Source: Chloroflexota bacterium (lineage in GTDB: Bacteria > Chloroflexota > Anaerolineae > UBA4142). From it: a stretch of DNA of 30,995 nucleotides. Position numbers and translations under genes: made by a program. Location: the NCBI GenBank assembly GCA_016199405.1, contig JACQGS010000041.1:1-30995 (forward strand), in the 5' to 3' direction. Within the stretch, counting starts at the first letter, position 1. The number at the start of each line of letters is the position of its first letter. Under the pieces are notes generated by a model that saw only the letters and a program-made list of their open reading frames with translations, made no database searches and was not told where the DNA came from. Below are positions 2,542 to 14,150 of this stretch, one piece after another.

Positions 2542-3195
2542 TCACTCGGCGGCGACACCTTGTAGTTTCGGCTGGAAGATTGCCAGCACAGTATCGCGCG
2601 GAGGTCGCGATGACTTCGGGCGAGCGTGCTGGTTCAGCAAGGCGCGTAACTGTATCTTGGCGCGGCGCAAATGCGTGCGCACAGTGTTCAATGGAATTTC
2701 CAAGGTCGCCGCGATTTCCTCGTACGAAAATTCTTCAAGATAACGCAAGACGATCACGGTCTTATAATGCGACGGCAGTTGCGCGACTGCCGCGCTGACT
2801 TCGCGCGCCAGCGCTTGCTTTTCAAGTTGTTCCCACGGCGGCAGCGCGTGATCGGGAATCGATTCGCTGGCGTCGTCAGCGTCTTCAGTGGCGCGGCGCG
2901 CCGCGTCGAGATCGGAAAAGAGCATCGGACGCTTTTTGCGTCCGTGATCGTAGCATAGATTGATGGCGATCCGAAAGAGATACGGCTTGAAGGGCCGCTC
3001 AAGATCAATTTGATCCAGCGCGTGGATGACGCGGATAAAAGTTTCTTGCGCGATGTTTTCGGCTTCCATCGCATCGCCCACCCAGCGCATCGAGGCGCGA
3101 TGAATCGCTGGAGTATAGCGTTCGACCAGTGTGCGGAAGGCGTCCGAGTTGCCGGCTTTGAATTGCCGGAGCAAATCGGTATCGGCGTTAAGCAT
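2542..3195 (-). CDS. ECF RNA polymerase sigma factor (SigW/RpoE-like)
   Basis: Region 2 (AENIAQETFIRV, FKPYLFRIAINLCYD) and region 4 (LRYLEEFSYEEIAATLEIPLNTVRTHLRRAK); ~27-aa C-terminal tail. Confidence 0.93.
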   Translation of the reverse strand: MLNADTDLLRQFKAGNSDAFRTLVERYTPAIHRASMRWVGDAMEAENIAQETFIRVIHALDQIDLERPFKPYLFRIAINLCYDHGRKKRPMLFSDLDAARRATEDADDASESIPDHALPPWEQLEKQALAREVSAAVAQLPSHYKTVIVLRYLEEFSYEEIAATLEIPLNTVRTHLRRAKIQLRALLNQHARPKSSRPPRDTVLAIFQPKLQGVAAE

Positions 3196-3215
3196 AGCGC
3201 GCCTCGCCCCAGATT

Positions 3216-3243
3216 ATTACGATGATAAAAACCTTCAGTTTCA
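3216..3243 (-). promoter_or_regulatory. ECF (SigW-type) promoter TGAAAC-N16-CGTAAT upstream of the sigma gene
   Basis: Minus strand reads TGAAAC tgaaggtttttatcat CGTAAT, ending 20 nt before the ATG; matches the B. subtilis sigma-W consensus TGAAAC-N16-CGTA. Confidence 0.75.
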
Positions 3244-3285
3244 CTCGGGATCCTATTCTAATCGCAATTGGGGCTGACGCCAAAC

Positions 3286-3425
3286 GTCTCGCCGTCACGG
3301 CTTGTGCAAAGTCGTGTTTCAAAATATGGGTGGCAGCCCAGCCGCGCTGGGCGTGAGCAAAACGGCAGCGCGGCTGCCTTCTATCCATCGTGTCAAGCGA
3401 CTTTGCACAAGCCCTGTCTCGCCGT
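3286..3425. mobile_element. MITE-like element with 16-bp terminal IRs, flanked by a 10-bp direct repeat
   Basis: GGCTTGTGCAAAGTCG (3299-3314)/CGACTTTGCACAAGCC (3398-3413) is a perfect IR; GTCTCGCCGT occurs at 3286-3295 and 3416-3425. Confidence 0.65.
3328..3379. repeat. REP-like palindrome, GGGTGGCAGCCCAGCC family, copy 1 (nested in the MITE)
   Basis: GGGTGGCAGCCCAGCCGCGCTGGGCGT...GGCAGCGCGGCTGCC; near-identical copy at 14089-14138. Confidence 0.85.
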
Positions 3426-3514
3426 GCGATCAGATTATTGCACCAGCACATTAGCCACAGATGAAAGGAAACTAAAGAGCAAGCGAAATATCTGGACCGA
3501 ATCGCATCTACCCT

Positions 3515-3545
3515 TTGACCGGGGCTGGACAACTTGTGTTATAAT
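3515..3545 (+). promoter_or_regulatory. Sigma70/SigA promoter with extended -10
   Basis: TTGACC (3515-3520), TG (3537-3538), TATAAT (3540-3545). The spacer is 19 nt, so it probably relies on the extended -10. Confidence 0.7.
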
Positions 3546-3560
3546 CTAGTTGTAATTAGT

Positions 3561-3677
3561 GCACCCCGTTGAGGAACAAGCAAGACGCCCCCACTCTTTA
3601 CGGGGGTCCAACCTGAAATTCCTCAGGCGTCTAGCAATAGTGAGCATAAACTCACTGCCTCAACGGGGTGTTTTTTT
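3561..3677 (+). ncRNA. Structured 5' leader / candidate attenuator or riboswitch of unknown family
   Basis: 13-bp perfect closing stem CACCCCGTTGAGG (3562-3574)/CCTCAACGGGGTG (3658-3670), followed directly by T7 and enclosing several internal helices; lies between the promoter and the CDF ATG. Confidence 0.6.
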
Positions 3678-3699
3678 GCGAGGTCTTTTTTCTAATCCG

Positions 3700-5136
3700 A
3701 TGGCTGACCCTTTATTGCCGAATGCGCAAACGCGCGCGCGCGAAAAAAATCTGGTCGCGGGATCGTCGGTCGGCGCGGCAATCTTTTTGACGCTCATCAA
3801 GATCGTGATCGGAATTGCCACCGGCAGTCTGGGCATTCTTGCCGAAGCTGTGCATTCCGGGCTCGATCTGGTTGCCGCGATCATCACCTGGTTTGCGGTC
3901 TGGGTGAGCGACAAGCCCGCGGATGAGACGCATCCGTACGGACACGGCAAGGTCGAAAACATCAGCGCGCTCGCCGAGACCGCGCTCTTGCTGGTGACGT
4001 GCATTTGGATAATTTCAGAAGCGATCGATCGTTTATTTTTGCACGTCAAACATGTCGATCCGAACGCGTGGGCATTCGCGGTGATGGCGATTTCCATCGC
4101 GATTGATTTTTCGCGTTCACGCGCGCTGAGTCGCATGGCGAAGAAATATTCGAGCCAAGCGCTCGAAGCCGACGCGTTGCATTTCAGCACGGACATCTGG
4201 AGTTCCGCCGTCGTGATTATCGGCTTGGCATTGGTCAAGGTCGGCGAGATCATTGGCGCCGAGTCGATCTTTGTCCGCGCGGATGCGATTGCGGCGTTGG
4301 TCGTCGCGCTGATCGTGATCGGGGTTAGCTTTCGGTTAGGCGCGCGCGCGATCGATGCGCTGTTGGATCGCGCGCCGCGTGGGATAGCGGAGCGAATCGA
4401 GAGCGCGGCGGCGAAAGTGAACGGGGTGCGCGTGGTGAAATCGACGCGCGTGCGCGGCGTGGGCAGTCAGATTTTTGCGGATGTGCACATCGAAATTCCG
4501 CGGCACTTTTCGTTTGAAGAGAGCCATTCCGTCGAGAGCCGCGTCGAAGAGGCGGTGCGCACGATCTCGCCGCACGCGGATGTCGTCGTTCATGCCGATC
4601 CGAGCGCGGATAGTGAAGGCGTGCTGGAAAAAATTCACGCCACCGCCGTGCGCGGACTTTACGCCGTGCACAATATCAGCACACACTGGACGCGGCGCGG
4701 GCTTTGGATCGATTTGGATCTCGAGGTTGATCCAGCGATTTCGTTTGAGCGTGCTCACGAAATGGCGGAAGACCTAGAAACGCAACTCCGCGCCGAACTC
4801 AACACGAATGCGCGCGTAGCAGATGTGAACATTCACATCGAACCGCGCGAGGTGGAGAATCTGCCGGCGATTGAAATTCAACCGAGCGAAACCGCGCGGT
4901 ACGTGGAGCGCATTCGGTCGTTGGGCGCGGAATTTGCGGCGGCGCGGAGCTGCGAAGACATTGCCTTGCAAAATCTTGGTGATGGAATTTACCTTTCGTT
5001 TCACATGCTTATGGATACGGCGCTTTCCGTCGGCGAGGTGCATACGATCGCGGAAGAGATGGAGCGGCGTCTGCGGCTCGAGTTTCCGGAATTGGGGCGC
5101 GTCGTGATCCATACGGAGCCAGCGCAAACGAAATGA
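3700..5136 (+). CDS. Cation diffusion facilitator (CDF) metal transporter with three C-terminal dimerisation domains
   Basis: HSGLD and HFSTD metal-site motifs, HPYGHGKVE motif; three repeats ending VHADP, IHIEP and IHTEP. ATG 3700 is preferred to GTG 3559. Confidence 0.92.
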   Translation: MADPLLPNAQTRAREKNLVAGSSVGAAIFLTLIKIVIGIATGSLGILAEAVHSGLDLVAAIITWFAVWVSDKPADETHPYGHGKVENISALAETALLLVTCIWIISEAIDRLFLHVKHVDPNAWAFAVMAISIAIDFSRSRALSRMAKKYSSQALEADALHFSTDIWSSAVVIIGLALVKVGEIIGAESIFVRADAIAALVVALIVIGVSFRLGARAIDALLDRAPRGIAERIESAAAKVNGVRVVKSTRVRGVGSQIFADVHIEIPRHFSFEESHSVESRVEEAVRTISPHADVVVHADPSADSEGVLEKIHATAVRGLYAVHNISTHWTRRGLWIDLDLEVDPAISFERAHEMAEDLETQLRAELNTNARVADVNIHIEPREVENLPAIEIQPSETARYVERIRSLGAEFAAARSCEDIALQNLGDGIYLSFHMLMDTALSVGEVHTIAEEMERRLRLEFPELGRVVIHTEPAQTK

Positions 5137-14085: not shown

Positions 14086-14150
14086 AAAGGGTGGCAGCCC
14101 AGCCGTGCTGGGCGTCGGGAGCGGGCAGTGCGGCTGCCCTCCCACCCTTT
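14086..14150. repeat. REP-like palindrome, GGGTGGCAGCCCAGCC family, copy 2
   Basis: AAAGGGTGG/CCACCCTTT outer IR; core near-identical to 3328-3379; lies between convergent genes. Confidence 0.85.

Follow-up and report, generated by a model that had tools for sequence, protein, structure and literature searches.

A stably folded small RNA of one Chloroflexota order, found ahead of a cation diffusion facilitator gene

The window, by which we mean the entire 30,995-nt stretch of Chloroflexota DNA analysed here, contains a gene for a cation diffusion facilitator (CDF) protein that is preceded by a long inverted repeat and a run of T residues, and this arrangement raises the question of whether the leader is a sensor that controls the CDF gene or an RNA in its own right. 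The initial annotation of the locus had proposed an undescribed metal-responsive switch and kept an independent small RNA of ~120 nt as a fallback. We conclude that the leader encodes a real, uncatalogued, stably folded small RNA of one Chloroflexota order and that it represents a new RNA family of an already known general kind; the fallback is the better fit to the comparative data.

The element is built around a perfect 13-nt inverted repeat (3562–3574 and 3658–3670) with 83 nt between its arms, and both this stem and the T7 run that follows it were correctly recognized at the outset. In the minimum free energy (MFE) fold the repeat forms 14 pairs (3561–3671), and the RNA from 3556 to 3680 has an MFE of −57.3 kcal/mol compared with −32.2 ± 3.6 for 200 dinucleotide-preserving shuffles (z = −6.9), none of which folded as well; the opposite strand folds slightly worse (z = −5.4). 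The MFE and centroid structures agree on a set of nested helices in which P1 closes a junction that holds P3 and a helix P2 bearing P2a and P2b (table 1). The helices that the initial annotation had listed (AGACG/CGTCT, CCCCC/GGGGG, CCTGA/TCAGG, and the hairpin that we call P3) therefore all exist; however, it had taken some of them to be mutually exclusive, and we find that all of them coexist in both structures and that each has compensatory changes in relatives. The competing register GAC-CCCC/GGGG-GTC has no comparative support, and a switch made of mutually exclusive helices gives way to a nested architecture. Complementarity between the unpaired segments is no better than in composition-matched shuffles, and this search for tertiary pairing gave no supported pseudoknot or loop–loop contact; pairing of L2a with L3 is possible in the window and in one group of relatives (group B, described later), without support over the whole family. 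Counts of G-U versus A-C pairs are uninformative as to strand (31 vs. 28), and the strand assignment rests on the putative promoter, the U-tract, and the orientation of the gene.

Table 1. Positions in the window of the RNA element, its expression signals, and the adjoining CDF gene
Feature	Position	Strand	Basis and remarks
Putative promoter, TTGACC plus extended −10 TGT-TATAAT	3515–3545	+	TTGACC at 3515–3520, 19-nt spacer, −10 at 3537–3545; read from the sequence
Predicted transcription start	~3552–3553	+	Inferred
P1, 5′ strand GCACCCCGUUGAGG	3561–3574	+	MFE fold; compensatory changes in 14/14 P1 pairs (18 distinct sequences)
P2, 5′ strand (GC, bulged A, AGACG)	3580–3587	+	Partner 3628–3635 (3583–3587/3628–3632, extended by 3580–3581/3634–3635); fold and alignment
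P2a hairpin (CCCCC, 9-nt loop, GGGGG)	3588–3606	+	3588–3592/3602–3606; 94% of cells paired; double changes in 4/5 pairs
P2b hairpin (CCUGA, 6-nt loop, UCAGG)	3612–3627	+	3612–3616/3623–3627; 99% paired; central CUG/CAG invariant in the RNA family
P2, 3′ strand (CGUCU, A, GC)	3628–3635	+	Fold and alignment
P3 hairpin (UAGUGAG, loop CAUAAA, CUCACUG)	3638–3657	+	3638–3644/3651–3657; double changes in 4/7 pairs; GUGA/UCAC nearly invariant
P1, 3′ strand CCUCAACGGGGUGU	3658–3671	+	Fold, inverted repeat, covariation
U7 tract abutting P1	3671–3677	+	P1 + U7 forms an intrinsic-terminator-like 3′ end; termination predicted
Spacer of 22 nt up to the CDF start	3678–3699	+	GAGG at 3680–3683; second T6 run at 3686–3691
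CDF gene, 478 aa, FieF/MntE/MamM-like	3700–5136	+	Three ZT_dimer stretches

The signals that flank this structure would suit a short transcription unit. The extended −10 promoter named in the initial annotation can be read in the DNA; a consensus promoter scan did not list it because TTGACC and TATAAT are spaced 19 nt apart. Relatives carry TTGAC[CT]...TA-rich promoter-like boxes at the equivalent relative position. At the other end, P1 and U7 have the make-up of an intrinsic terminator, that is, a G+C-rich stem (14 bp, with 8 G-C pairs at its base) directly followed by a U-tract, but an atypical one that encloses an 83-nt folded domain rather than a loop of 3–8 nt. P1 measures between 10 and 16 bp across all family members and is G+C-rich in every one of them, and the same 3′-end design of P1 plus U-tract recurs in eight group B loci. 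The 22-nt spacer between this end and the CDF start codon is too short for a separate consensus promoter, and the consensus scan of positions 3100–3900 found no promoter-like site on the forward strand and hence none between the RNA and the ATG. This spacer is similar to the U-run and GGAGGTC segment that precede the CDF start in one relative (G013).

The product of the downstream gene matches the Pfam Cation_efflux model (1.9e-44), ZT_dimer in three stretches (1.2e-40), and the NCBIfam CDF superfamily model (9.9e-75), and its best equivalog-type model is FieF, under the cut-off of that model. The ZT_dimer (cytoplasmic dimerisation) stretch is present in it three times rather than once, and this long form is common in metagenome-assembled genomes (MAGs) of Chloroflexota, Acidobacteriota, and Aminicenantes, with 585 relatives confirmed by tblastn in the genome collection. 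A divergent gene for an ECF sigma factor lies upstream of the RNA, and a gene for a GlpD-like oxidoreductase lies downstream of the CDF gene.

The RNA has no counterpart in Rfam 15, against which its novelty was judged. No family matches the whole window at gathering score, and a cmscan of positions 3450–3750 (301 nt) at E ≤ 10 returned only a chance match to snoR35, which bears out the original suggestion that the structure is undescribed. The covariance models of the NiCo (czcD, RF02683), yybP-ykoY (RF00080), and M-box (RF00380) riboswitches match neither the window nor this segment, and yybP-ykoY does not match the loci of relatives either. Rfam searches of the loci of nine relatives, and of the full group B RNA at E ≤ 5, gave nothing relevant, and a search of the window for tRNA and tmRNA genes found none. 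A word search of the literature for a described Chloroflexi motif returned general surveys only.

To determine the range of the family we used BLAST in addition to covariance models. BLAST against 60 related genomes gave one clear match, which likewise lies upstream of a CDF gene. Covariance searches were carried out with a model of the single sequence (R1) and then with a model of 11 sequences (R2); R2 found exactly one copy in each of 14 of the 34 genomes of the order, distributed over the genera g16 (9/9), g9 (3/4), and g14 (1/1) and the window's own genus. Among 150 genomes sampled across the class it found no match outside the window's family, and it found none among 150 genomes sampled across the phylum. 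A degenerate pattern taken from the conserved P2b–P3 segment retrieved seven metagenome contigs, all of which are true members according to R2. In a search for the motif in 80 loci that hold CDF relatives of other phyla and classes, only L028 scored, and its sequence is identical to that of L112 from G020.

The final alignment, fitted to the covariance model, comprises 21 matches representing 18 distinct sequences. Standard pairs occupy 89.4% of its cells compared with 32–41% when the 3′ partners are slid by 1–3 columns, both-side (compensatory) changes occur in 31 of the 38 base pairs, and none of 500 column shuffles reaches any of the observed measures; these counts are not independent, as the family is small and phylogenetically narrow. 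All genomes are MAGs. The covariation that the initial annotation had called for is thus present. As an independent check, RNAalifold applied to a plain MAFFT alignment of six full-length group B RNAs gave the same P1, P2, P2a, P2b, and P3. The five core pairs of P2 are paired in 100% of the sequences and show double changes in all five, and in P2b covariation is seen at the outer and the inner pair, with the three pairs between them constant. Invariant or nearly invariant positions are confined to the CUG/CAG of P2b, the GUGA/UCAC of P3, a CC/GG in P2a, and one A each in the P2–P3 junction and in the loop of P3.

Family members fall into three groups according to their genomic context. Group A, to which the window belongs, corresponds to the window's family and also includes the genomes G008, G017, G020, and G013 and L121, a metagenome contig truncated at its end. 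In this group the RNA is located within the 5′ leader of an orthologous CDF gene (five genomes from three genera). In the four relatives the order is patatin gene, leader, CDF gene, and aminotransferase gene (the last seen in G017 and G020), and the motif is wrapped in extra helices and followed by two hairpins and then by a long hairpin ACAGGTAC...GTACCTGT with a U-run. The window leader consists of the motif alone, and P1 with U7 stands where the relatives have the long hairpin. Every CDF-linked locus has a hairpin and U-run 15–25 nt ahead of the CDF start, which is P1 in the window and a separate hairpin elsewhere. In g9 and in G013 no U-rich terminator directly follows the motif, and the RNA continues as a multi-hairpin leader of ~250–400 nt.

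The long hairpin, in the form ACAGGTAC(A/T)CGCG...GTACCTGT plus U-run, was also observed at L142:1400–1480 (G014), on the reverse strand of L147 (G012), at L112:1710–1825, and in L110 and L114. It is conserved in several genera, some of which have the motif and some not, is absent from the window, and forms a separate CDF-specific leader or attenuator element. The g9 loci further contain c-di-GMP-I-GGC aptamers (L112:190–278, reverse strand; L113:2848–2936, forward strand; L110:2820–2906, forward strand) that score 66–72 bits against a gathering score of 59; they lie ~1.3 kb from the motif on the opposite strand and appear unrelated to it.

Group B consists of four genomes of g16, a genus of a sister family, and four metagenome contigs in which the motif is the 3′ domain of a conserved structured RNA of ~345 nt. 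This RNA has its own promoter-like boxes and a 5′ domain closed by a GAGAG/CUCUC helix, and its P1 is followed by U7–9. A divergent gene for an OmpR-type regulator is found upstream at every locus examined, and the downstream gene, where checked, is convergent (MscS in L107 and L124; MFS in L109). The ~345-nt RNA occurs at L107:1495–1845 (reverse strand) and in L106, L108, L109, L124, and L125 (alignment A8); several hairpins are found in its 5′ domain, 33 predicted pairs with compensatory changes are spread over its full length, and it has no Rfam match.

Group C consists of five g16 genomes and two metagenome contigs and has an RNA of ~200 nt in which a promoter-like box, a short 5′ hairpin, the motif, and, 3–20 nt further on, a separate terminator hairpin follow each other. 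A conserved 77-aa open reading frame (ORF) lies downstream in three loci, and no same-strand gene follows the RNA in the other group C loci or in the remaining g16 copies; overall, the g16 RNA usually faces a convergent gene. Among the group C neighbours are a divergent ArsR/SmtB regulator (two loci) and, upstream of the RNA on the same strand, a VIT1 or a P-type ATPase gene (one locus each).

The ORF encodes a protein of 74–77 aa (MxxxFVxxDxQExLAHSFIEEYL...) with a good Shine-Dalgarno sequence and was seen at L111:1061–1294, L117:88–312, and L118:1160–1393 (all reverse strand) as well as in L130 and L131; in two other genomes, G025 and G026, it occurs without the motif. It matches no Pfam or NCBIfam family, Atlas returns only clusters of hypothetical proteins, and the query used did not find it in the window's genome. 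Boxes of the form TTGAC[CT]-N9-TAGA[AG]T, often after TTTT, precede either the RNA or the 77-aa ORF in g16 (L106–L109, L117, L118, L122, and L130). Their 9-nt spacing is far below what a sigma-70 −35/−10 pair needs, so that TTGACC may instead be bound by a regulator or belong to a promoter of unusual type.

The proposed link to a metal exporter is confined to the window's family and is not general. A CDF orthologue is encoded in 19 of the 22 other genomes of this family and in none of the nine g16 genomes, all of which have the RNA; conversely, the CDF gene is found without the RNA in at least 14 genomes of the window's family. RNA-less members of the family have no leader, since the patatin ORF reaches the CDF start or overlaps it, and G012 and G014 have the long hairpin and U-run ahead of the CDF gene without the motif. 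Where a genome has both, RNA and CDF gene are adjacent (5/5 genomes). In the CDF tree, which is poorly resolved and leaves out G021 (in-frame TGA) and G011 (a fragment), the RNA-linked genes do not form one clade, and the well-supported branches require at least two gains or losses; G013, which has the RNA, is sister to G014, which lacks it (98/99 support).

The explanation that we favour, with moderate confidence, is that the locus combines a discrete small RNA with attenuation of the CDF gene. Positions ~3553–3677 of the forward strand would be one member of an order-restricted small RNA family with a core of ~105–125 nt. The RNA would be transcribed from its own extended −10 promoter, with the start as predicted in table 1, and would end at the closing stem and U7, 22 nt ahead of the CDF ATG, the most likely product being a discrete RNA of ~125 nt. 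Because P1 and U7 precede the ATG by only these 22 nt without an intervening promoter-like site, the CDF gene, which has no recognisable promoter of its own, would be expressed only through terminator read-through, that is, by transcription attenuation. The RNA itself probably acts as a single nested module and not by switching among internal helices, and P1 seems too stable to serve as the ligand-gated element of a classical riboswitch. In the window the 5′ strand of P1 is presumably not sequestered from upstream because the predicted transcript starts only ~8 nt before it. No antiterminator is evident, since constrained folding with the P1 5′ strand blocked in silico, which does not fully model co-transcriptional folding, revealed no alternative, and in groups B and C the terminators further downstream form as before. 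In three of the four arrangements the transcript is laid out to end at P1 or immediately beyond it; because of this, and because gating by P1 is disfavoured, we regard the RNA as discrete, small, and stably folded, and it may act in trans. All CDF-linked relatives, and also two genera without the motif, have a hairpin and U-run at the corresponding place ahead of the CDF gene, which suggests that attenuation is a trait of this CDF lineage and that the window copy may have merged the end of the RNA with the attenuator. Several features count against the favoured explanation: a terminator with an 83-nt folded domain as its loop is non-canonical; the motif has no U-rich terminator directly behind it in g9 and G013; VIT1, P-type ATPase, and ArsR/SmtB genes near g16 copies point to ions or metals; the invariant boxes may be binding sites; and the 5/5 adjacency of RNA and CDF gene, despite differing flanks (ECF sigma factor and GlpD-like genes in the window vs. 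patatin and aminotransferase genes), resembles that of a dedicated cis-regulator.

That adjacency also bears on a different reading in which the core binds a ligand (possibly Fe, Mn, or Zn) and thereby shifts termination at P1 and U7, or at the downstream hairpin and U-run in the relatives, to tune CDF expression. We consider such a riboswitch or ion sensor unlikely, although a role in sensing is still conceivable in view of the 5/5 adjacency and of the ion-related genes nearby. The multi-stem junction with strongly covarying stems and few invariant nucleotides is aptamer-like, the FieF-like CDF gene has the RNA in its 5′ leader within two different sets of flanking genes, the RNA-linked CDF genes are not one clade, and VIT1, a P-type ATPase, and ArsR are among the g16 neighbours; a ligand or a protein could bind at the invariant CUG/CAG and GUGA/UCAC boxes. 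However, a consistent position ahead of functionally related genes is lacking, as the RNA precedes CDF only in the window and the four group A relatives: 13 of the 18 distinct copies lie elsewhere than ahead of the CDF gene, most have no same-strand gene downstream, g16 has the RNA and lacks the CDF gene, most CDF orthologues adjoin the patatin gene without a leader, and G012 and G014 have the hairpin without the motif. In addition, P1 is 10–16 bp long throughout and a mutually exclusive antiterminator was not found by constrained folding; if P1 is the terminator, a ligand-stabilized fold would turn the exporter off, the opposite of what sensing of a toxic metal calls for; and the VIT1 and ATPase genes are upstream, not downstream, of the RNA. 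Equally doubtful is the broader proposal that a new class of riboswitch or ion sensor has the ~115-nt module as its sensor domain, or that the module is a new protein-titrating RNA; it would be a stand-alone regulatory RNA in g16 and would attenuate an Fe/Mn/Zn-type CDF exporter in the window's family, with its closing stem turned here into a terminator.

The invariant pairs admit a further reading, namely that a trans-acting protein or RNA recognizes the two similar hairpins, xCUGA...UCAGx and xGUGA...UCACx, a factor that would sequester the RNA in g16 and would act by antitermination or processing ahead of the CDF gene in the window's family. Invariance of these pairs while the other stems covary freely suggests sequence-specific recognition of a helix; stand-alone copies have strong predicted promoters and terminators; and a divergent regulator gene lies by many copies (ECF sigma factor in the window, OmpR-type at all group B loci examined, ArsR at two group C loci). 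Nevertheless we regard this reading as rather improbable, given that no candidate binding protein is consistently linked, the neighbours varying by group, and that the invariant pairs are equally compatible with sites of tertiary contact or ligand binding. Far less probable still, and largely refuted, is the view that there is no RNA gene at all and that the stretch is a MITE/REP-type repeat, a plain terminator, or an N-terminal extension of the CDF protein. A repeat might be suspected because a genuine MITE/REP-like palindrome, its arms likewise 83 nt apart, lies 150 nt upstream, but the element occurs once in the 2.8-Mb, 69.5%-complete MAG and once per genome in 13 relatives, compared with 43 matches for the palindrome, and we reject this candidate. 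The frame that opens at GTG 3559 runs to ATG 3700 without a stop and would add 47 aa; yet this extension has no Pfam match, orthologous CDF proteins begin at the position equivalent to ATG 3700, relatives do not keep this frame open in their leaders, and their compensatory changes and non-multiple-of-three indels maintain base pairing, not the reading frame, so that we reject this candidate too. The initial annotation had itself raised both the repeat and translation from GTG 3559 as possible pitfalls, and it survives on both points. ORF callers that choose the longest frame would annotate a 525-aa protein from this GTG and mask the RNA.

Our preferred reading, a discrete small RNA with attenuation of the CDF gene, can be placed among known systems. 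The RNA resembles terminated leaders or attenuators and also stand-alone structured RNAs with a long terminal stem. NiCo riboswitches form a four-way junction with conserved core nucleotides, and Mn2+-binding yybP-ykoY riboswitches have four helices with conserved L1 and L3 loops. Together with the Mg2+-responsive M-box (RF00380), RF02683 and RF00080 share with the present RNA a structured leader before a metal-transport gene and a terminator-like element before its start; unlike in these classes, to which there is no match even at E ≤ 10, P1 here closes P2 (with P2a and P2b) and P3, has 10–16 bp, and bears the U-tract, no antiterminator was found, and most members do not precede a transporter gene. 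Leader-derived small RNAs such as SreA/SreB and EutX/Rli55 have their own promoter and an intrinsic terminator before the gene, with a short RNA and a read-through mRNA as alternative products, and derive from known aptamer classes with defined ligands. The window locus is similar in having a structured 5′ element, its own predicted promoter, and a terminator-like end just before the gene; it differs in that it matches no Rfam family and has fully stand-alone counterparts in a sister family. With Y RNA/YrlA and 6S RNA the family has in common a single copy and a long terminal stem around a conserved multi-helix domain, with function presumed to lie in the folded body, whereas it has no Rfam match, no T-loop-like element or 6S-type central bubble in the alignment, and a range of one order. 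The orphan structured-RNA motifs that comparative genomics has brought to light in bacteria and metagenomes are alike in covariation, narrow range, and mixed cis-like and orphan contexts, but unlike those curated in Rfam 15 the present family is absent from that database.

The family adds a well-supported uncatalogued structured RNA, every helix of which has compensatory changes, from largely uncultured Chloroflexota. As the same module is free-standing in one family and the leader of a metal exporter in another, it offers a natural experiment in the interconversion of small RNAs and cis-leaders. If the core binds a metal, a metabolite, or a protein it would define a new class of sensor; if it is not a sensor it would be a clean example of the closing stem of a large domain serving as the terminator that gates a downstream gene. 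Covariance model R2 and alignments A7 and A8 make the family searchable.

The palindrome mentioned earlier is located between the ECF sigma factor gene and the RNA promoter. We considered whether it is homologous to the 5′ domain of the group B RNA and rejected this; because nhmmer found nothing, we ascribe the shared words GTGCAAAG and TTGCACAAG to chance. The palindrome is near-perfect over 121 nt (window positions 3286–3425, core 3296–3416), folds with an MFE of −71.6 kcal/mol (z = −7.0), and recurs at positions 14089–14141 of the window. Its 43 matches in the MAG are those of a nested repeat in which ~5 span nearly the full length and over 30 comprise only the inner REP-like palindrome of ~60 nt. 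The core is flanked by the 10-bp direct repeat GTCTCGCCGT, and the whole looks like a MITE with a target-site duplication.
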